From a virus (Duplodnaviria > Heunggongvirae > Uroviricota > Caudoviricetes), in the IMG/VR virus record IMGVR_UViG_2675903352_000011, positions 1-8,228 of that record: a DNA stretch of 8,228 bases; one strand, written 5' to 3'. The notes under the pieces are model-generated. The model was not told where the DNA came from, searched no databases, and worked only from the letters and a program-made list of their open reading frames with translations. Each line of letters begins with the position of its first letter. Positions within the stretch are counted from its first letter, which is position 1. The translations under genes were made by a program, and so were the position numbers. Below, piece after piece: positions 1 through 8,228 of the stretch.

Positions 1-154
1 TAACGAGGAAAGACCTCTGCGAGGTACGAATCCGAACCGGCCAGACGGAGGTCGCTGTCTTCACAGCTTACGAACCTGAGGAGTAAGAGACCCGGCGAGG
101 GAGAAATCCCTCGCCACCTCTGATGTGGCAGGCATCCTCAACGCACCCGCACTT

Positions 155-181
155 AACCCGCTTCGGCGGGTTTTTGTTTTT
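155..181 (+). terminator. Rho-independent terminator (GC stem, UUCG tetraloop, T-tract)
   Basis: Seen in sequence: aacccgc / ttcg / gcgggtt stem-loop at 155-172 followed by tttttgtttttatttt. Upstream 100-122 holds a second hairpin (gcgaggga gaaa tccctcgc). No ORF is listed in 1-300. Confidence 0.6.
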
Positions 182-302
182 ATTTTCAACGCGTTTGAAG
201 ATCTGGACGGTGCCGGAATAGAATCAAAAATACTTAAGTAGCGCGCAGGGATAAGAGGGATGGTCCCTTAAAGGGGAGAGCTAATTATCCGGAAGGATTC
301 TG

Positions 303-554
303 ATGATGAACATCGAAGAACTGCGTAAAATTTTTTGTGAAGATGGCCTCTATGCTGTGTGCGTTGAAAATGGAAATCTTGTTAGTCATTACCGCATTAT
401 GTGTTTGCGAAAGAATGGGGCTGCGTTAATTAATTTTGTGGATGGTCGAGTGACAGACGGATTTATCTTGCGCGAAGGTGAGTTTGTCACTTCATTACAG
501 GCACTGAAAGAGATCGGAATAAAAGCAGGCTTTTCAGCTTTTGCAGAAGAATAA
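303..554 (+). CDS. Hypothetical prophage protein, 83 aa, family not recognised
   Basis: ORF with ATG start at 303 preceded by a Shine-Dalgarno-like ggaagga about 6 nt upstream. Translation is protein-like and not low-complexity. I cannot assign a family from memory. Confidence 0.55.
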   Translation: MMNIEELRKIFCEDGLYAVCVENGNLVSHYRIMCLRKNGAALINFVDGRVTDGFILREGEFVTSLQALKEIGIKAGFSAFAEE

Positions 555-620
555 ACTCATCTACAATCTTGCGCGGGGCTGAACTCCCGCTGAGTAACAC
601 CGTGCCACCGGAGAAAACCG

Positions 621-899
621 ATGGCACGCAACGTAAAATATTACAATTCTGATAATTCGCCCGTTCTTGCCTGCACGCACGAGCGGTATTCTCACGCATT
701 CAAGTCTGAATGGTTCCAGCACCCTCCATGCACTGAAGAGCAGGCTGAATGGATAATTCAGTGTTACCGCAGGCGCGGATACGAGGTTAAGAAAGCTCTT
801 AGTCTCGACTACCGTCACTGGATAATCTCAGTCAGATTGCCTTACTCCGAACGCCCATCGCGTCCGTCCCGTACATTCCAGCAACGCATCTGGAGGTAA
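621..899 (+). CDS. Hypothetical prophage protein, 92 aa; possibly the N-terminal fragment of a disrupted longer gene
   Basis: ATG at 621 with GGAG about 8 nt upstream. Same frame as the 1053..1922 ORF; separated from it by a ~150 nt segment that is open only in the +1 frame (901..1098). May be an independent small gene or part of a frameshifted gene. Confidence 0.4.
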   Translation: MARNVKYYNSDNSPVLACTHERYSHAFKSEWFQHPPCTEEQAEWIIQCYRRRGYEVKKALSLDYRHWIISVRLPYSERPSRPSRTFQQRIWR

Positions 900-1052
900 C
901 GTGCGGGTATTACTTCGACCTGTTCTGGTACCGGAACTCGGGCTGGTGGTCGTTAAGCCGGGCCGTGAATCCATGCCGGTATTCCACAATACCCGGGTAC
1001 TGGTGGAGCCGGAACCGAAAAGCATGCGTAATCTGCCGTCCGCCAGCCGCTG

Positions 1053-1922
1053 GTGGAAGACAAAACATTGCTGCCGTTTTTCAGTAACGCACGGGTAATT
1101 CGTGCTGCTGGTGCATTGTCTGACTGGCTGTTGCGCCATATTAAATCCTGCCAGTGGCCACACGGCGATTATCATCACAGCGAAACCGTTATTCACCGTT
1201 ATGGTACCGGCGCAATGGTGTTGTGCTGGCACTGCGACAACCAGCTGCGTGACCAGACATCCGAATCACTCGAGCAACTTGCTCATCAAAACCTGTCAGC
1301 ATGGATGATTGACGTCATCGGTCACGCAATAAGCGGTACGCAGGAGCGTGAATTATCTCTGGCTGAATTATCCTGGTGGGCGGTCCGCAATCAGGTGGCG
1401 GACGCGTTACCGGAAGCGGTATTACGTCGCTCGCTGGGATTACCAGCGGAAAAAAACTGCTCGGTGTACCGCGAAAGCGACATCGTACCGGGAGAGCAGA
1501 CCGCCACCAGCATATTGAAACAGCGCACAAAAAATCTTGCACCGTTGCCTCACGCCCACCAGCAACAAAACCCATCACAGGAAAAGACGGTGGTAAGCAT
1601 CACCGTTGATCCAGAGTCTCCGGAATCTTTCATGAAGCTGCCTAAACGTCACCGTTGGGTTAAGGAGAAATACACACGCTGGGTTAAGACACAGCCGTGT
1701 GCTTGCTGCGGTATGCCAGCCGACGATCCGCATCATCTGATTGGTCACGGGCAGGGCGGAATGGGAACCAAAGCACATGATCTCTTTGTGTTGCCTTTGT
1801 GCAGAAAGCATCACGACGAGTTGCATACGGATACCGTGGCATTTGAAGAGAAGTATGGCTCCCAACTGGAGCTGATTTTTCGATTTATCGATCGCGCGCT
1901 GGCAATTGGTGTGCTGGCCTAA
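1053..1922 (+). CDS. DUF968-type prophage protein (YdfU-like) with C-terminal HNH-like Cys/His motif
   Basis: 289-aa ORF. C-terminal region [22 protein letters not shown]...[10 protein letters not shown] has paired Cys and His-His motifs typical of HNH-like zinc fingers. Position immediately upstream of Q matches nin-region genes of lambdoid prophages. The start is uncertain: the listed start is GTG, and frame-0 is open from 1032. Confidence 0.6.
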
Positions 1923-1939
1923 TTTTGTGGAGTAAGTTG

Positions 1940-2317
1940 ATGCGTGATATTCAGATGGTTCTTGAGCGTTGGGGGGCATGGGCGGCTAATAATCATGAAG
2001 ATGTGACCTGGTCGTCCATTGCCGCCGGTTTTAAGGGATTAATTCCTTCAAAAGTAAGATCTCGTCCGCAATGCTGTGACGATGACGCGATGATCATTTG
2101 TGAATGTATGGCTCGCCTGAAAAAAAACAACAGCGATTTACATGATTTATTGGTGGACTATTATGTCGGCGGCATGACTTTTATGGCGCTTGCACGTAAG
2201 CATGGGCGATCTGATTGTTGGGTTGGCAGGATGCTCCAGAAAGCTGAGGGCGTAGTGGAGGGCATGCTGATGGTGTTGGATCTCCGATTGGAGATGGATG
2301 CTGATTGTTCGAAATAA
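1940..2317 (+). CDS. quuD: Late-gene antiterminator Q (phage 82 / DLP12 QuuD-like)
   Basis: Translation [24 protein letters not shown]...[18 protein letters not shown]... matches my memory of the short Q antiterminator of DLP12-type prophages. ATG at 1940 with GGAG about 9 nt upstream (the ORF track starts at an upstream TTG at 1925). Followed by a short promoter-terminator region as expected for PR'-tR'. Confidence 0.8.
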
Positions 2318-2359
2318 TTAAAGGAAAAGTTGCTGTCTGATTTTCATTAGTCTAACATT

Positions 2360-2400
2360 TTAAATGTTGGAATCGCAACGTAGTTATTATCATATAACAG
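2360..2400 (+). promoter_or_regulatory. Candidate late promoter PR' with Q-utilisation region (approximate)
   Basis: Inference from position directly downstream of Q and upstream of a strong terminator. Weak sigma70-like elements: ttggaa at 2367-2372 and tatcat at 2388-2393 (spacing is a short 15 nt); tcatat at 2390-2395 is an alternative. Exact hexamers and TSS cannot be fixed by eye. Confidence 0.3.
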
Positions 2401-2415
2401 CTTGTTTCCTGATTT

Positions 2416-2446
2416 AGCCAGCCTCCCCAAAGGCTGGTTTTTTCTA
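2416..2446 (+). terminator. Rho-independent terminator (tR'-like)
   Basis: Seen in sequence: agccagcc / tccccaaa / ggctgg hairpin followed by ttttttc. Lies about 100 nt downstream of the Q stop. On the minus strand the hairpin is not followed by a U-tract, so it is mainly a + strand terminator. Confidence 0.65.
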
Positions 2447-2471
2447 ATAAGTATCATTTCGGGTGGGGATT

Positions 2472-2996
2472 TTATTGTTTAACCCATAATAGTTCATTGA
2501 CATTGAATCCCAACTTTTGAGCGGTACGCACATAGTCTGCTTTTACATTATCTGGAATAGTTTGGGTCCTTGCCAGAATCCATAGGTATTCTCTGTTCGG
2601 ACCACTGACAAGAGCATACTTATACTCATCATCCAGTTTGATTACATTATAGCCACCATAGAAGGGGCCAAAAAACGAAACTTTCAACGCTGCAGTTTTA
2701 GTATCTCCAGTAAAGTATGCTTTACCTTCGCTCTCGCTCCATTTGTTTTTCGTTGGATCGTATCCACGGTTAAGTACGCGAATCCCTCCGTCGTTCCGTT
2801 TTTCATAAGTAGCGCTGACCTGTTCCAGACCACGTTCGAACCAGTTCTCGAGGCGAGCTATTTCATACCATTTTCCGAGGTAGCGGTTGGCGTCAAAATT
2901 TGTAATCGGCTGCACACCTTTAGGTGGTGTCGGGGCCTTACATGCTATAAGAGTGAAAGAGAGTGCAATGCCAGTCAACACAGGCCATAACTTCAT
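2472..2996 (-). CDS. blc: Bacterial lipocalin (Blc-like) outer-membrane lipoprotein
   Basis: 174-aa translation with signal peptide and lipobox (MKLWPVLTGIALSFTLIAC, Cys followed by K at +2, not an Asp Lol-avoidance signal). Strong resemblance to E. coli Blc motifs: NFDANRYLGKWYEIARLENWFERGLEQVSATY, KAYFTGD..AALKVSFFGPFYGGYNVI, YLWILART. AGGA Shine-Dalgarno 6-8 nt upstream of the ATG on the minus strand. Opposite orientation to the late operon. Confidence 0.85.
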   Translation of the reverse strand: MKLWPVLTGIALSFTLIACKAPTPPKGVQPITNFDANRYLGKWYEIARLENWFERGLEQVSATYEKRNDGGIRVLNRGYDPTKNKWSESEGKAYFTGDTKTAALKVSFFGPFYGGYNVIKLDDEYKYALVSGPNREYLWILARTQTIPDNVKADYVRTAQKLGFNVNELLWVKQ

Positions 2997-3188
2997 AATA
3001 AATCCTGTACTTTTGATAGTTGAGAGTAAGTATGAAAGATAGATGAGTACGACCGATCACTTAAAGAACTTTCCTACTATATTAGGAATAGTCAATAACA
3101 GAAAAATTGTCAGTGATGAAGCCAGAAAGGCAATTTAGTCCGTGCACTACAAAGTTTATGTGTTAATGAATTAGTCAAGGGGGAGGAA

Positions 3189-4148
3189 ATGATAAAAAAA
3201 CCTGTGATTGGGATCAGCGGTTGTTTGGGCGGTTCTGCTGTTCGTTTTGATGGTGGTCACAAAAGAGATGACTTTTTAATGGACAAATTAGTGGAATGGG
3301 TAACATTCAGACCAGTATGTCCGGAAATGGCTATAGGGCTGCCAGTTCCGCGTCCTGCTCTACGACTTGTGCGCTCGAAGCAAGGAAATATACGGATGTG
3401 TTTCAGCCACGACCAGAATGAGGATGTGACAGAGAGAATGACAGAGTTTAGTCGTTCTTATATGGACAAATTAAAGGATGTATCGGGGTTTGTGGTTTGT
3501 GCTAAATCTCCCAGCTGTGGCATGGAGCGCGTGCGTGTCTATGATGAAAATGGTAATCGAGGTCGTAAAGATGGAGTGGGACTATTTACGAGCACTTTGA
3601 TGGAAAAGTTTTCCTGGCTACCGGTTGAAGAGGATGGGCGATTACATGATCCAGTGCTTCGTGAGAATTTTATTGAAAGAGTTTTTGCTTTGCATGAGCT
3701 CAATCACCTTTACAAGGAGAAATTATCAAGAAGAGAGTTATTAGCTTTTCATAGTCGTTATAAGCTTCAGTTGTTGGCGCATAGCCAGGCAGGCTATAAA
3801 GATATGGGACCATTTGTGGCTGCAATACACGAGTGGGCGGACCTTGAATCATACTTTGAGGTGTATCGTGATAATCTGATGGCGATTCTCAGAAAACCAG
3901 CATCACGTAAAAATCACACGAATGTGCTGATGCATATACAGGGGTATTTTAGTAATTACTTAAGTACACGCCAGCGTAAAGAGTTGAGCGAGGTTATACT
4001 TAACTATCGCTTTGGCACATTGCCTCTTCTTGCGCCGTTGACTCTGCTGAAGCATTATCTGGGTGAGTATCCTAATGATTACTTGCTTACACAGAATTAC
4101 TTCGATCCCTATCCGGAAGAACTGGCTCTAAGACTGATGGTGAATTAA
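3189..4148 (+). CDS. DUF523-DUF1722 fusion protein (TudS-like, putative [4Fe-4S] thiouracil/thiouridine desulfidase family)
   Basis: 319 aa. N-terminal PVIGISGCLGGSAVRFDGGHKRD is a DUF523-type motif. Cysteines at about positions 12, 44 and 104 fit the three-Cys ligand pattern I recall for TudS-type DUF523 proteins. The C-terminal half (AFHSRYKLQLLAHSQAGYKDMG...) resembles DUF1722. Strong RBS gggggagg about 5 nt upstream of the ATG. Confidence 0.7.
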   Translation: MIKKPVIGISGCLGGSAVRFDGGHKRDDFLMDKLVEWVTFRPVCPEMAIGLPVPRPALRLVRSKQGNIRMCFSHDQNEDVTERMTEFSRSYMDKLKDVSGFVVCAKSPSCGMERVRVYDENGNRGRKDGVGLFTSTLMEKFSWLPVEEDGRLHDPVLRENFIERVFALHELNHLYKEKLSRRELLAFHSRYKLQLLAHSQAGYKDMGPFVAAIHEWADLESYFEVYRDNLMAILRKPASRKNHTNVLMHIQGYFSNYLSTRQRKELSEVILNYRFGTLPLLAPLTLLKHYLGEYPNDYLLTQNYFDPYPEELALRLMVN

Positions 4149-4545
4149 CTGTATGCGATATCATCTGAAAGTGATGAGTTCCTGTATGCAGGATATTTAC
4201 AATCGTAAAAACTACGCTATGATGCTCATAGTGTCAGTTTTTATAAAAATCCTGTTCACGCTAAAGAAAACATTGAGATGCAATTTAATGTTGGTAAACA
4301 TACCAGCCCCAAAAGATTTTATTCAATCTGTTTTTATATGAAGATATTTCAAGTGAATATTAAGAGCATATAATATTATTATTGCACGCAGCTATTATAA
4401 TATAACAGATTAGTTTAATGATTTGTTTTTTGTGAGTTAAACACATGGTTTTATAGTTGTGATGCAATGAGATTTTCCTTATTGTTGAACTGGCGAATAT
4501 TGATTTTCCACCTATACTTACCTGGTGTAACCCCAATGATATCAG

Positions 4546-5268
4546 GTGGATAATATGCCATACATATGTTCTATCATTTTGGTGTTGAACTCGTTTGGTG
4601 TCCGAATTGGTAAAGAAGATATTTTGTTTAAAAAAGGAAATGCTGTTCTCATTGAATACAATTTAAAAGATCTTTTTTCGTCAAATACAGATCATCTAAT
4701 GATCGTAGATGTTGAGGAGAAAACAGTTAATGATTTCTTTAAAAACTACACACTCTCACCTTTTTCTGTAAGAAGGTTTTATCCGTCATACTTTATAGTA
4801 GAATGTGAAGATTTTTCATTGTTAAAGAACTTGGTTGCATGCTTGAATTGTGATAGCAAAACCGTGGATGTAGTTAGAAATCAAATATCACTTGCATGTC
4901 TTGCTGTCTTATCTTCAGAGAAAATAGTGCAAAGTTTTTTGTTCGGAAGTCTTAATAGCTTAGGTTGTAAAGTTAAGGCTATTATTCACTCGGATATCTC
5001 AGCGTCATGGAGACTTTGTGATATATCTTCAAGATTATATATGAGCGAGAGTTTGTTAAAAAGAAAATTAAAAGATGAAGGATTATCGTTTAGTAAATTA
5101 ATTCTTGAAGAACGAATGATGATGGCGCAAAGATTATTGATCTACAGTAACCATACTGTCGGCAAGGTGGCGGGAATATGCGGGTATGACAATGCATCAT
5201 ATTTTGTAAGTGTTTTTAGAGGATATTTTGGTGTGCCTCCGCACCAATATTTATCAAGATTTTCTTAG
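4546..5268 (+). CDS. AraC-family transcriptional regulator (AppY / YdeO / PatE-like prophage regulator)
   Basis: 240 aa. C-terminal AraC-type HTH signature (SESLLKRKLKDEGLSFSKLILEERMMMAQRLLIYSNHTVGKVAGICGYDNASYFVSVFRGYFGVPPHQY). N-terminus MDNMPYICSIILVLNSFG... resembles the AppY-like subgroup. Very AT-rich gene and upstream region. Start could be M1 or M4. Confidence 0.8.
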   Translation: MDNMPYICSIILVLNSFGVRIGKEDILFKKGNAVLIEYNLKDLFSSNTDHLMIVDVEEKTVNDFFKNYTLSPFSVRRFYPSYFIVECEDFSLLKNLVACLNCDSKTVDVVRNQISLACLAVLSSEKIVQSFLFGSLNSLGCKVKAIIHSDISASWRLCDISSRLYMSESLLKRKLKDEGLSFSKLILEERMMMAQRLLIYSNHTVGKVAGICGYDNASYFVSVFRGYFGVPPHQYLSRFS

Positions 5269-5336
5269 AAGATATGATGTGATGGCATTTTATAAAGTTA
5301 TTTTTTGAAGTGTAAGATTATACGATATTTTTAGCT

Positions 5337-5369
5337 ACGCCAGAATAATTGCTGGCGTTTTTCTTTTTG
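5337..5369 (+). terminator. Rho-independent terminator downstream of the AraC-family gene
   Basis: Seen in sequence: acgccag / aataattg / ctggcg hairpin followed by tttttctttttg. Confidence 0.6.
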
Positions 5370-5458
5370 AATAGATGTTCGGGCCTTACGCTAATGTAAC
5401 TTCTTTCCTTCTTCGAACCAAACCGTGTACACCATCCGTTATCTGCGGAGGTGAGGCT

Positions 5459-5674
5459 ATGAAATCCATGGATAAGTTAACAACGGGCATCGCCTACAGC
5501 ACCTCTGCAGGCAGTGCTGGCTACTGGTTTTTACAGTTGCTCGATAAAGTCACGCCCTCACAGTGGGCGGCAATAGGTGTATTGGGTAGTCTGGTATTTG
5601 GCATGCTGACGTATCTGACAAACCTTTATTTCAAGATTAAAGAAGACAGGCGTAAGGTTGCGAGAAGAGAGTAA
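5459..5674 (+). CDS. essD: Class II holin / pinholin (S21, EssD-like) with dual-start motif
   Basis: 71 aa: [71 protein letters not shown]. Near-identical to my memory of phage 21 S / DLP12 EssD. Met-Lys-Ser-Met dual start is typical of the antiholin/holin pair. Two TM segments and a charged C-terminal tail. ggaggtgagg Shine-Dalgarno directly upstream. The ORF-track extension to 5375 is rejected. Confidence 0.9.
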
Positions 5675-5678
5675 TCCA

Positions 5679-6410
5679 ATGACTCAAGACTATGAACTGG
5701 TTGTGAAAGGAGTTCGCAATTTTGAGAATAAAGTGGCGGTAACTGTAGCCTTACGGGACAAAAAACACTTTGACGGTGAAATTTTTGACCTGGACATCTC
5801 GCTGGACCGTGTTGAAGGTGCCGCGCTGGAGTTTTATGAGGCAGCAGCCAGAATGAGCGTCAGGCAGGTCCTCCTGGGAGTGGCAGAAAAATTGTCAGAA
5901 AAAGTTGAGTCTTATCTGCAGCATCAGTACTCCATTGAGATTGAAAATTCTGCCAATAAACACGATCGTCCTCATCTTGCGGGTTTTGATAGTGCAGTTA
6001 AAGCCAACACCAGGCGCGCAGGGCAGGAAAAAAACGTCGGGGATGACATAAGTCGTGCGGTGGTTACTGTAGAGTTTCCAGGGCATATGGCATCAAGAGA
6101 GAAAGTCGGGAAAGGTGGTGCTCCTGTGCTGACGAAAAGAATCGGCAGCAAGGTCAGTGTCTGGCTTGATAATGAAGAAATGTTGTCGGTTATGTACAAG
6201 GAAGACTACGACCCGAAAACAACGTTCAGCGACTATGAAGCGAGAGCAAAAAAGTATGCCTTGTTGATAGTTGCCGCGATGCGAGCCGTAAATGAGCGAC
6301 AACGCCACCACGAAAATGGGGTGGCGTTTGTTGCTAAAGCTGTTCAGCAAACTATTGATGGTATGACGACGAAGTTTCTTCAGGAATTAAAATTGTCTCA
6401 GCAAGAGTAA
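5679..6410 (+). CDS. Unknown-function protein (243 aa) inserted between holin and endolysin
   Basis: ATG at 5679, 4 nt after the holin stop, suggesting co-transcription or translational coupling with the late lysis operon. The ORF-track start at 5658 is a TTG inside the holin gene. No family recognised; no obvious TM segments; no nuclease, NTPase or HTH motif I can identify by eye. Confidence 0.6.
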   Translation: MTQDYELVVKGVRNFENKVAVTVALRDKKHFDGEIFDLDISLDRVEGAALEFYEAAARMSVRQVLLGVAEKLSEKVESYLQHQYSIEIENSANKHDRPHLAGFDSAVKANTRRAGQEKNVGDDISRAVVTVEFPGHMASREKVGKGGAPVLTKRIGSKVSVWLDNEEMLSVMYKEDYDPKTTFSDYEARAKKYALLIVAAMRAVNERQRHHENGVAFVAKAVQQTIDGMTTKFLQELKLSQQE

Positions 6411-6633
6411 CGCATGATTCGGCAATCAATTTGTTCATTTCGTCTAAAACTTCCTGCGGGGTTTCCAGGGATTCGGGTAATTTTATTGATGAAAAAGTGT
6501 TAGCTGATTTAGTAAGCAAATCTTTAATAATTGCTTTTTTCTCATCTGGTAAAGCGTTAACTAGGAGTATGACAACCTGTCTGATGGCCAGAATATCAGC
6601 AAAAGCTTTTTTAGATAAATAAGTATCGCTCAT
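6352..6633 (-). CDS. Unknown-function small protein (93 aa), convergent to and 3'-overlapping the 243-aa gene
   Basis: ATG (minus) at 6633 with AAGGA Shine-Dalgarno about 4-5 nt upstream. Translation MSDTYLSKKAFADILAIRQVVILLVNALPDEKKAIIKDLL... is helical and charged, not antisense junk. Very AT-rich. Last ~19 codons overlap the 3' end of the + strand 243-aa gene (6352-6410). Confidence 0.5.
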   Translation of the reverse strand: MSDTYLSKKAFADILAIRQVVILLVNALPDEKKAIIKDLLTKSANTFSSIKLPESLETPQEVLDEMNKLIAESCVTLAETILIPEETSSSYHQ

Positions 6634-6759
6634 ATGTTGTCCTTACTGTTTGTTCTGTGATCTTCACATTGTCAGTATTACCCCTGCGAGGAACTACCTG
6701 CCGGGCTGAGTACTAAACATATCCAGGGTTCAGGAACCGATAAATCCTGATAAATATCC

Positions 6760-7293
6760 ATGAACGTAAAAATCAAATACGGCCTGTCAGCTGCCGTTCT
6801 GGCGCTGATTGCTGCAGGCGCGTCTGCTCCTCAAATACTTGACCAGTTTCTGGATGAAAAAGAAGGTAACCACACAACGGCATACCGTGATGGTTCTGGC
6901 ATATGGACCATCTGTCGTGGTGCCACAATGGTGGATGGTAAGCCCGTCATACCGGGAATGAAGCTGTCGAAGGAAAAATGCGACCAGGTTAACGCTATTG
7001 AACGTGATAAGGCGCTGGCATGGGTGGATCGCAATATAAAAGTACCACTGACCGAACCACAAAAAGCAGGTATTGCGTCATTTTGTCCCTATAACATTGG
7101 CCCCGGTAAGTGTTTCCCGTCGACGTTTTATAAGCGGCTGAATGCCGGTGATCGTAAAGGCGCATGCGAGGCGATTCGCTGGTGGATTAAGGACGGTGGC
7201 CGTGATTGCCGCATTCGTTCAAATAACTGTTACGGTCAGGTTATTCGTCGTGACCAGGAGAGTGCGCTGGTGTGCTGGGGGATCGACAGATAA
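6760..7293 (+). CDS. rrrD: SAR endolysin (T4-lysozyme-like muramidase, RrrD / R21-like)
   Basis: 177 aa. N-terminal signal-anchor-release domain YGLSAAVLALIAAGASAP (Gly/Ala-rich, weakly hydrophobic). Catalytic E...D...T spacing matches T4 lysozyme (E-9-D-6-T in EGNHTTAYRDGSGIWT). Closely matches my memory of DLP12 RrrD. Pairing with a pinholin is the established S21/R21 arrangement. Confidence 0.9.
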   Translation: MNVKIKYGLSAAVLALIAAGASAPQILDQFLDEKEGNHTTAYRDGSGIWTICRGATMVDGKPVIPGMKLSKEKCDQVNAIERDKALAWVDRNIKVPLTEPQKAGIASFCPYNIGPGKCFPSTFYKRLNAGDRKGACEAIRWWIKDGGRDCRIRSNNCYGQVIRRDQESALVCWGIDR

Positions 7294-7383
7294 GCAGAAT
7301 ATTTTGCTGAAAAATGCCGTTTGCTCACACAAGCGGATAACACGATATTCTGCAAACTGGCAAAAGGAAGTGAATAAAAGCAA

Positions 7384-7420
7384 AAACCCCGTTTGTTGGC
7401 AGCAAGCGGGGTTTTGTTTT
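7384..7420. terminator. Bidirectional rho-independent terminator between endolysin and Rz
   Basis: Seen in sequence: (aaaa)ccccgtttg / ttggcag / caagcgggg (9-bp stem with one U-G pair) flanked by an A-tract upstream and ttttgtttt downstream, so it reads as a terminator on both strands. Confidence 0.6.
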
Positions 7421-7449
7421 CTGCCCATGGGAAAGCTAAAGGAGAAAAC

Positions 7450-7587
7450 GTGTTTGATTTTAGCAAACCGATTCTGGAGATTCGAGTGATGGCTGAAAAA
7501 TTATCCACCTGGAAGTTCATCCTTATCTGGCTGGTGTTTGTGGTTATGGGCTCCGGTTATTTCATCGGTCAGATACGCTGGTGGTGA
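7450..7587 (+). CDS. Possible small single-pass membrane peptide (45 aa from GTG 7450, or 32 aa from ATG 7489)
   Basis: In-frame GTG at 7450 preceded by ggagaaaac; alternative ATG at 7489 preceded by ggagattcgag. Encodes ...MAEKLSTWKFILIWLVFVVMGSGYFIGQIRWW with one clear hydrophobic helix. Stop TGA at 7585-7587 abuts the Rz ATG at 7589. Could instead be a non-coding remnant. Confidence 0.3.
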   Translation: MFDFSKPILEIRVMAEKLSTWKFILIWLVFVVMGSGYFIGQIRWW

Positions 7588-7588
7588 A

Positions 7589-8053
7589 ATGAACCGGATT
7601 CTGTATGGCGTGATTATTGTCCTGCTGATGGTCTGTAGTGCTCTGTGGCTGGCAACAGATCATTACCGCGATAACGCCATTACCTACAAAACACAACGCG
7701 ATGACAATGCCAGAGAGCTGAAACTGGCAGAGGCGATCATTACTGATATGCAGGTGCGCCAGCGTGACGTTGCTGCACTCGATGCAAAATATTCAAAGGA
7801 ATTAGCTGATGCGAAAGCTGAAAATGATGCTCTGCGTGATGATATTGCCGCTGGTCGTCGTCGGTTGCGCATCAGAGCAGTCTGTCCAGCCGTGCGTGAA
7901 GCCACCGCCTCCTCCGGCGTGGATGATGCAACCAGCCCCCGACTGGCAGACACCGCTGAACGGGATTATTTCACCCTCAGAGACCGATTGATGACGATGC
8001 AGAAGCAACTGGAAGGGGCACAGCTATACATTCGTGAGCAATGCCTCAGATAA
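7589..8053 (+). CDS. rzpD: Spanin inner-membrane subunit Rz (i-spanin, RzpD-like)
   Basis: 154 aa from ATG 7589: MNRILYGVIIVLLMVCSALWLATDHYRDNAITYKTQRDDNARELKLAEAIITDMQ... N-terminal TM anchor plus coiled-coil periplasmic domain, strong resemblance to lambda/DLP12 Rz. The ORF-track start at 7538 is rejected because it lacks an RBS and overlaps the upstream peptide ORF. Confidence 0.85.
   Translation: MNRILYGVIIVLLMVCSALWLATDHYRDNAITYKTQRDDNARELKLAEAIITDMQVRQRDVAALDAKYSKELADAKAENDALRDDIAAGRRRLRIRAVCPAVREATASSGVDDATSPRLADTAERDYFTLRDRLMTMQKQLEGAQLYIREQCLR
7809..7991 (+). CDS. rzoD: Spanin outer-membrane lipoprotein subunit Rz1 (o-spanin, RzoD-like), embedded in the +1 frame of Rz
   Basis: 60 aa: MRKLKMMLCVMILPLVVVGCASEQSVQPCVKPPPPPAWMMQPAPDWQTPLNGIISPSETD. 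Lipobox LVVVGC and a proline-rich segment. Lies entirely within the Rz coding region in a different frame, the classic Rz/Rz1 arrangement. Confidence 0.85.
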   Translation: MRKLKMMLCVMILPLVVVGCASEQSVQPCVKPPPPPAWMMQPAPDWQTPLNGIISPSETD

Positions 8054-8228
8054 AAACCGGCCAAGGATAATCCGCTGAAGATTTGCCGGCGGCGAAAGAG
8101 AGCCAAGGGTTCAGCCTACGCCATTACTCCTGTCGATGCAATGCATTGTATGGGGCCACCACATATTGCAATTTTTGTGCTCTCTTAAAATATATTCCAC
8201 GGGTGTCATTAGCGCGAGCGCCTTATGG

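Follow-up and report, generated by a model that had tools for sequence, protein, structure and literature searches.

The rudS gene lies in an 8,228-nt stretch of virus DNA (Caudoviricetes; IMG/VR record IMGVR_UViG_2675903352_000011, positions 1–8,228; hereafter the window). The setting is a lambdoid late region of a prophage, and rudS is cargo, the second of three genes (blc, rudS and an AraC-like gene) that form a cassette between the antiterminator gene Q and the holin gene. Judged by its sequence, the 319-amino-acid (aa) product is RudS, a 4-thiouridine (s4U) desulfidase of tRNA. We consider it very probable that the product is a tRNA s4U eraser carried as prophage cargo, one that would leave tRNA insensitive to ultraviolet A (UVA). 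The gene itself has been described before; new ground would be what it does for the phage.

The rudS gene and its product

The plus-strand reading frame of rudS is unbroken: it opens with an ATG at 3189, comprises 319 codons and closes with a TAA whose last base is 4148. It is preceded by a strong ribosome-binding site. The gene, its start signal and its two domains are placed as follows.

3189..4148, plus strand: rudS, encoding the 319-aa RudS (TudS domain plus DUF1722); open reading frame (ORF) list, Pfam, identity to RudS_vir of Escherichia phage 1H12, and PHROGs
3180..3186, plus strand: Shine-Dalgarno-like GGGGAGG, 2 bases before ATG 3189; read from the sequence
3207..3635, plus strand: catalytic TudS-type domain, residues 7–149; PF04463, with TudS matches by sequence and fold
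3762..4115, plus strand: DUF1722 helical domain, residues 192–309, proposed binder of the tRNA anticodon arm; PF08349 and structure model

Domains were assigned using hmmscan against Pfam. PF04463, now named 2-thiour_desulf (2-thiouracil desulfurase) and formerly DUF523, matches residues 7–149 over profile positions 1–141 (E 5.8e-40, 137 bits, cut-off 34.7 bits). PF08349 (DUF1722) matches residues 192–309 over profile positions 1–117 (E 9.4e-40, 136 bits, cut-off 22.5 bits). The two matches are full-length, do not overlap and lie on one polypeptide. An earlier model-made reading of the letters of the window (the sequence-only reading) had proposed a TudS-type DUF523–DUF1722 fusion, which the Pfam search bears out with both E values at about 1e-40. 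The PHROGs family phrog_3275, which has 319 positions and is labelled 'unknown function', covers the product end to end (E 1.5e-224). The NCBIfam YbgA equivalog model PRK10167 matches residues 161–315 only and scores 189 bits (E 4.7e-56) against an equivalog cut-off of 237 bits. With the NCBIfam TudS-related model the score is 17.7 bits, short of the 130-bit cut-off.

Cluster ligands and catalytic residues

The product has cysteines at positions 12, 44, 71, 104 and 110. Ligand and catalytic positions were predicted by comparison with TudS and with RudS_KT of Pseudomonas putida.

3222..3224, plus strand: Cys12 codon, predicted [4Fe-4S] ligand 1; equivalent to TudS C10 and RudS_KT C17
3318..3326, plus strand: Cys44-Pro45-Glu46, predicted ligand 2 and catalytic Glu; equivalent to TudS C43/E45 and RudS_KT C49/E51
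3351..3353, plus strand: Arg55 codon, predicted to orient the catalytic Glu; equivalent to RudS_KT R60
3498..3500, plus strand: Cys104 codon, the non-ligand cysteine named in the sequence-only reading; opposite TudS K98 and present in 11/142 rows
3507..3518, plus strand: Ser107-Pro108-Ser109-Cys110 (SPSC), predicted catalytic serines and ligand 3; equivalent to TudS S101/S103/C104 and RudS_KT S111/S113/C114

In a phmmer alignment to TudS (PDB 6Z92), C12 aligns with C10, C44-P-E46 with C43-P-E45, and S107-P-S109-C110-G with S101-P-S103-C104-G. Opposite window C104 stands TudS K98. Conservation was scored in an alignment of 142 rows, made of the query and 141 diverse full-length representatives from a 50%-clustered protein library that are 35–56% identical to it. 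The ligand positions C12 and C44 are each retained in 140/142 rows and C110 in 138/142. Catalytic positions are also retained (E46 and S107 in 141/142, R55 in 140/142, S109 in 135/142). C104 occurs in 11/142 rows, with Lys the commonest residue at that position, and C71 shows no conservation across the alignment. Among Enterobacterales homologues the ligands and catalytic residues are invariant in the 20–29 sequences compared; C104 is invariant only in this group.

The predicted [4Fe-4S] triad is therefore Cys12/Cys44/Cys110, with the third ligand in the SPSCG motif and not at Cys104, because the TudS alignment and the 142-row conservation favour C110 while C104 is clade-specific. The sequence-only reading had named cysteines near 12, 44 and 104 and expected them to be conserved. 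All three are present, the first two are predicted ligands and are conserved, and the third ligand moves to Cys110. The '104' of that reading is the TudS number of the third ligand, which coincides here with a clade-specific cysteine.

Published data on relatives fall on the same residues. The three positions 12, 44 and 110 are listed for RudS_vir and RudS_ST in Table 1 of the paper describing RudS, and activity was lost in RudS_KT E51M, R60M, S111M, S113M and cysteine mutants (PMC11417400). The DUF1722 residues S243 and R244, a tRNA contact in RudS_KT, correspond to S239 and R240 in the window protein.

Structure comparison

A fold search with a structure model of the rudS product returned TudS chains as the only significant matches (E 4.6e-5), with template modelling (TM) scores of 0.66–0.69 normalised to TudS. 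The same model superposes on TudS over residues about 6–160 with a root-mean-square deviation of 4.7–5.0 Å and only 26% identity. TudS is also the only relative in the PDB by sequence search. The DUF1722 region is all-helical in the model.

Identity as RudS and published assays

Fusion of a TudS domain to DUF1722 is the definition of RudS, a tRNA s4U8 desulfidase (Jamontas et al., NAR 2024, PMC11417400). Table 1 of that paper gives six cloned rudS genes, one of which is RudS_vir of Escherichia phage 1H12. RudS_vir (1H12 gp66, H3V29_gp66, YP_009909557) is identical to the window protein at 293/319 positions (92%) without gaps. It is also 319 aa long, has Cys12, Cys44 and Cys110, and none of its 26 substitutions falls at a ligand or catalytic position. 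The window product is assigned to RudS because it combines the two domains with all three cysteines and all four catalytic residues, and is 92% identical to an assayed member; every feature looked for at the sequence level was found. Confidence in this enzyme identity is high, and it draws on the sequence and on the published assays of the 92% identical orthologue.

All six RudS orthologues, RudS_vir included, reduced tRNA s4U in Escherichia coli by 4.7- to 26-fold (PMC11417400). In vitro, tRNA was bound by purified RudS_KT and ~80% of the s4U was gone within one minute; RudS_KT is also the only orthologue with a reported [4Fe-4S]-type spectrum (PMC11417400). A role of DUF1722 in tRNA binding was supported by docking and mutagenesis of RudS_KT (PMC11417400). 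The sequence-only reading had offered s4U of tRNA as one possible substrate, and this activity has been demonstrated experimentally for the TudS–DUF1722 architecture (PMC11417400).

That reading had also offered thiolated nucleobases, for which the published results are mixed. In a uracil auxotroph, RudS_vir gave growth on 4-thiouracil after a lag and no growth on 2-thiouracil (PMC11417400), so free thiouracil is at best a minor substrate. A small-molecule role like that of TudS, with 4-thiouracil or 4-thio-UMP salvaged from degraded tRNA during infection or detoxified, is improbable. The catalytic domain is homologous to TudS, TudS enzymes are reported to recycle 4-thio-UMP (PMC10611767), and the 4-thiouracil lag of RudS_vir was the shortest among the RudS enzymes tested (PMC11417400). 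However, no RudS equalled TudS in complementation, none used 2-thiouracil, and the authors concluded that thiouracils are not the primary substrates (PMC11417400). Stand-alone TudS left tRNA s4U unchanged, whereas RudS lowered it (PMC11417400). The fused DUF1722, needed for tRNA binding, has moreover been kept under selection.

Late region and cargo cassette

The sequence-only reading placed the gene in a prophage late region, and the neighbouring genes agree: Q lies upstream, and holin, DUF1327 protein, lysozyme and Rz/Rz1 genes lie downstream.

1053..1922: DUF968/YdfU-type protein; ORF list, Pfam
1940..2317, plus strand: Q antiterminator, 125 aa from ATG 1940 (mechanical ORF from 1925); Phage_antitermQ E 8e-51, and an identical gene in RefSeq
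2472..2996, minus strand: blc-like outer-membrane lipocalin lipoprotein, first cassette gene; Lipocalin_2 E 7.4e-43
4546..5268, plus strand: AraC-family regulator (YdeO/GadX-like), third cassette gene; HTH_18, HTH_AraC
5459..5674 (ORF 5375..5674), plus strand: holin (EssD/phage 21 S type), first lysis gene after the cassette; Phage_holin_2_1 E 8.9e-34, start taken from essD of E. coli strain 3036
5658..6410, plus strand: DUF1327 protein, 250 aa, between holin and endolysin
6352..6633, minus strand: 93-aa ORF overlapping the end of the DUF1327 ORF; phrog_2572, no Pfam match
6760..7293: lysozyme; ORF list, Pfam
7538..8053, plus strand: Rz; ORF list, Pfam
7809..7991, plus strand: Rz1-like ORF nested in Rz, +1 frame; lipoprotein-like N-terminus (…LPLVVVGC…) and proline-rich body

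The blc gene is divergent from rudS and, in prophages, always accompanies it. Its product matches the NCBIfam Blc model over its full length with 310 bits against a cut-off of 267, and belongs to phrog_2809 ('unknown function'). The AraC-like product is YdeO/GadX/HilD-like; its best NCBIfam match is YdeO (2.3e-32, below the cut-off), and the RefSeq start of its equivalent corresponds to window 4555. A tblastn search of this protein against phages found unnamed relatives only. It may group with the prophage regulators of acid resistance and type III secretion PatE, PsrA and PsrB.

G+C content is ~41–46% in blc and rudS, 31–35% (about 31%) in the AraC-like gene and 50–54% in the ydfU region. The cassette is thus lower in G+C than its flanks, which fits foreign cargo. 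Shiga toxin (Stx) phages use the slot between Q and the lysis genes for stx, with tRNA genes upstream of stx. No tRNA genes or Rfam families were found within the window, so its slot differs from the stx slot with upstream tRNA genes.

Several observations concern the flanks. Residues 8–100 of the 5658..6410 ORF are DUF1327 (YdfR-like) and are followed by a ~150-aa extension (phrog_34145, phrog_11851); YdfR itself is ~103 aa. The 1.1-kb stretch holding this ORF and the ORF opposite it is at least 80% covered in only 6 complete E. coli genomes. The Rz1-like ORF is the usual Rz1 o-spanin nested in Rz. Escherichia phage HannyBb (3249–6010) shares the flanks of the window and encodes a 250-aa Q. 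Its cargo slot of ~2.7 kb holds some twenty ORFs of 90–170 nt, which look like a mis-annotated array, possibly of tRNA genes.

A counter-defence or host-takeover function, in which erasure of s4U evades a tRNA-targeting defence or reprogrammes the tRNA pool, is pure speculation and the least probable of the explanations considered. The late-region cargo slot would suit it, and tRNA-Ser and tRNA-Tyr were roughly halved by RudS_KT overexpression, echoing degradosome decay of s4U-less Vibrio tRNA (PMC11417400). However, PADLOC-DB models gave no match to RudS, Blc, the AraC-like protein or two neighbouring ORFs, and no publication supporting such a function was found. To our knowledge, no defence system is keyed to s4U.

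Candidate promoters and terminators

Three candidate signals flank the cassette.

2289..2318, plus strand: promoter-like site at the end of Q, candidate pR'; 9/12 consensus positions
2416..2445, plus strand: intrinsic-terminator-like GC-rich hairpin and T run, candidate tR'; hairpin 2416–2439 identical in 1H12
5337..5366, plus strand: terminator-like hairpin and T run in the gap between the AraC-like gene and the holin; hairpin 5337–5358 kept in 1H12, flanks ~72% identical

The -10 element of the 2289–2318 site is retained in phage 1H12, as GATAAT. The hairpin at 2416–2445 lies ~100 nt beyond this site and just downstream of Q, and the two are arranged as a pR' and its tR' would be. A search of the stretch upstream of rudS (2997–3188) gave no convincing sigma-70 promoter. 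A hand-picked TTGCTG-N17-TAACAT at 2330–2358 has only 7/12 consensus positions and was not relied on. Mapping of pR' by way of cassette-free phages was abandoned, as the intergenic regions 2318–2470 and 5225–5460 are confined to the 12 phage records that carry the cassette. HannyBb was of no help here, since its flanks are shared and its Q is different.

Distribution and selection

The rudS gene was found in 1136/5426 complete E. coli genomes (~21%), with nearly all copies chromosomal and at least 80% of the gene covered in 1064 of the 1136. Identity to window rudS is at least 99% in 407 genomes, 95–99% in 619 and 90–95% in 110, and the window allele falls within the commonest E. coli group. 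In these genomes rudS usually belongs to the three-gene cassette between Q and the lysis genes; 889 complete E. coli genomes cover at least 80% of the 3-kb blc / rudS / AraC-like unit. In the phage collection the 12 records with the cassette are 1H12, the Lambda_ev series and IdasGreatGrand. The wider RudS family has 6522 cluster representatives at E ≤1e-3 and 1170 at E ≤1e-30. The sequence-only reading had called the enzyme unexpected in a prophage late region. This does not stand, given its frequency in E. coli, the existence of phrog_3275 and the ten viral RudS sequences already noted, one of them assayed (PMC11417400).

Between the window and 1H12 alleles the ratio of nonsynonymous to synonymous substitution rates (dN/dS, Nei-Gojobori) is 0.14 (dN 0.041, dS 0.29), and rudS is therefore under purifying selection. 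A decaying passenger is contradicted by this ratio and by full-length conservation. Single broken copies exist, one with an IS1 insertion (H26) and one truncated (BL21 lineage). E. coli Rosetta2(DE3), derived from BL21(DE3), has the same Q and lipocalin genes in a Qin-like prophage (NZ_CP083274.1 101–1497, equal to window 1940–3335); of its rudS only the first 147 nt are left, and they carry a pseudogene label. The published assays used BL21(DE3) as their 'RudS-free' host, and E. coli was described as without RudS (PMC11417400).

E. coli strain 3036 carries a rudS 100% identical to that of the window; it is part of a Qin-like prophage whose genes run ydfU, Q, lipocalin, 'YbgA family protein', helix-turn-helix regulator, essD, ydfR, rrrQ, rzpQ. 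Terminase and tail genes of this element are truncated. The window is a mosaic prophage, and 89% is the most of it that any complete E. coli genome covers.

Salmonella loci, serovar Derby included, encode a RudS homologue 73% identical to the window protein, with rudS at 5001–5960 in two loci and 3704–4663 in a third. This gene adjoins one for a 311-aa PF01171 (ATP_bind_3) protein, putatively ttcA (tRNA 2-thiocytidine synthase). With an integrase fragment and a DUF1367 phage gene nearby, the locus looks like a prophage remnant. The Salmonella gene STM1389/ORF319 is adjacent to Salmonella pathogenicity island 2. The prophage-remnant rudS appears to lie at a location distinct from STM1389/ORF319, the gene used in the RudS paper.

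Proposed mechanism and role

Catalytic steps were taken by homology from TudS crystal structures and RudS_KT mutagenesis. RudS would act as a monomeric [4Fe-4S] tRNA 'eraser' that converts s4U at tRNA position 8 (and 9) to uridine. Cys12, Cys44 and Cys110 would hold the cluster, and the fourth iron, without a cysteine, would bind the sulfur of a flipped-out s4U8. Glu46, positioned by Arg55, Ser107 and Ser109, would activate water for attack on C4. The sulfur would pass to the cluster as a [4Fe-5S] intermediate and then leave as sulfide. The DUF1722 helical domain would grip the anticodon arm, which would make tRNA, not free thiouracil, the substrate.

We infer both the mode of rudS expression and the benefit to the phage. 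Because rudS shares its orientation with Q and the lysis genes, and the pR'/tR'-like pair precedes it, Q-modified polymerase would transcribe it at induction. If pR' is the 2289–2318 site, this polymerase would read through both terminators, and rudS would be co-transcribed with the lysis genes. The second terminator (5337–5366) would shield the lysis genes from cassette transcription in the lysogen, where rudS may be transcribed from its own or an AraC-dependent promoter.

Loss of the UVA photosensor s4U8 is the most likely pay-off, by extrapolation from an experiment in which the growth delay after UVA was ~60 min in E. coli overexpressing RudS_KT, instead of ~105 min (PMC11417400). Lower s4U would prevent UVA-induced s4U8–C13 cross-links, uncharged tRNA, accumulation of guanosine tetraphosphate (ppGpp) and growth delay. 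Translation would stay running in light-exposed lysogens or induced cells.

Who benefits is a separate matter, and a host-benefit role and a purely viral one are about as likely as each other. A lysogenic-conversion (moron) gene is a fair possibility, though we would not favour it outright: RudS, Blc and the AraC/GadX-like protein would form a stress-tolerance cassette expressed from its own promoters for lysogen fitness under UVA, in stationary phase or in acid. The three genes travel together in the 889 genomes counted above, and rudS is intact and under purifying selection though many host prophages, such as that of strain 3036, look defective. The conserved terminator sets the cassette apart from the holin. 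Lying on the opposite strand, blc cannot belong to the late operon. Acid resistance of the host is a target of other AraC-like regulators from prophages, namely PatE, PsrA and PsrB. Against a moron stand the promoter search upstream of rudS, which found no convincing site, and the retention of rudS in fully functional temperate phages (1H12, the Lambda_ev series, IdasGreatGrand). A moron is also compatible with late-operon expression and hence is no exclusive alternative. The specific case of a late-operon gene of viral purpose, in which sunlight or UV induces the prophage, Q drives rudS and s4U8 is stripped while virions are built, is unlikely. If true, the phage would encode an 'epitranscriptome eraser' matched to its own inducing signal.

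Several points weigh against RudS as a cargo s4U eraser that protects tRNA from UVA. The structure model is of moderate confidence (pLDDT, the predicted local distance difference test score, of 79.9, with residues 13–27 below 50). Activity data concern the 92% identical RudS_vir, not the window allele itself. RudS_vir was well expressed yet among the less active orthologues on tRNA, and its 4-thiouracil lag, the shortest of all RudS tested, indicates some small-molecule activity (PMC11417400). The promoter-like sites are weak (9/12), and 12 were found against 11.1 expected in shuffled sequence; the late-promoter layout is hypothetical because the promoter calls are weak and at chance frequency. 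Chromosomal rudS genes belong to operons for light or photo-oxidative stress, whereas no light-stress regulator lies near the phage copy. No publication on a phage role of RudS was found.

For enzyme discovery the locus carries little weight, as the family was named, its mechanism proposed and its members assayed in 2024, a near-identical phage allele among them. Genes labelled 'YbgA family protein' or 'DUF523 and DUF1722 domain-containing protein', and the PHROG of 'unknown function', can be annotated as RudS. Prophage rudS is common in E. coli, a species described as RudS-free, and work on s4U and UVA in natural isolates should allow for it. Were the late-operon reading of viral purpose to hold, prophages would set the s4U level and UVA response of about 1 in 5 E. 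coli strains, K-12 not among them. One question is left: why temperate lambdoid phages keep a tRNA s4U eraser in the cargo slot equivalent to that of stx.

Comparison with known systems

TudS (PDB 6Z92/6Z93/6Z96/6ZW9) has the fold modelled for residues of about 6–160 of the window protein, the three-cysteine [4Fe-4S] site predicted for it and the same Glu/Ser catalytic residues. It is a single domain of ~150–166 aa without DUF1722, whereas the window protein has 319 aa and a second domain. The substrates of TudS are free 4- and 2-thiouracil and 4-thio-UMP. Strictly speaking, the window protein is no TudS: it has two domains, and the near-identical RudS_vir is poor on thiouracil.

E. coli YbgA (b0707), a stand-alone DUF1722 protein of ~169 aa, is homologous to the C-terminal half of the window protein only, which accounts for the RefSeq label 'YbgA family protein'. 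Unlike the window protein it has no catalytic domain, and it had no effect on tRNA s4U (PMC11417400). Despite its RefSeq name, the window protein is not a YbgA equivalog.

RudS_KT (P. putida PP_0741) shares both domains and the ligands with the window protein, and its E51, R60, S111 and S113 correspond to window E46, R55, S107 and S109. The chromosomal RudS proteins of Salmonella (STM1389/ORF319) and Citrobacter braakii have the same two-domain architecture, ligand positions and catalytic residues. The nearest non-phage relatives are Enterobacterales RudS proteins of 319 aa (Citrobacter, Serratia, Klebsiella, Enterobacter, Salmonella and others), which are 69–76% identical and some of which are chromosomal.

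Phage 1H12 has the same gene order as the window, Q / blc (minus strand) / rudS / AraC-like / holin. The AraC-like neighbour diverges faster than RudS, with 76% aa identity to its 1H12 copy against 92%. The lysis module is of phage 21/Qin type in the window and of lambda type in 1H12.

Chromosomal rudS genes occur in light-responsive operons with MerR/LitR and photolyase neighbours (PMC11417400). On a C. braakii metagenomic contig (1–5960), rudS is the last gene after those for a short-chain dehydrogenase/reductase, a flavin adenine dinucleotide (FAD) amine oxidase, DUF1365, a cyclopropane-fatty-acid (CFA)-synthase-like methyltransferase, DUF2878, a chalcone-isomerase-like protein and DUF3833. 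This tightly packed operon fits a photo-oxidative or lipid-stress module. The idea that blc reached the phage together with rudS, both out of a chromosomal light-stress operon, was rejected. In Citrobacter the gene two places before rudS encodes a 175-aa protein that has no relation to Blc (BLASTP E 1.8) and shows a weak, sub-threshold resemblance to chalcone isomerase (E 0.0043). Compared with these operons, the phage rudS is detached from its light-stress neighbours and placed in a late-region cargo cassette.

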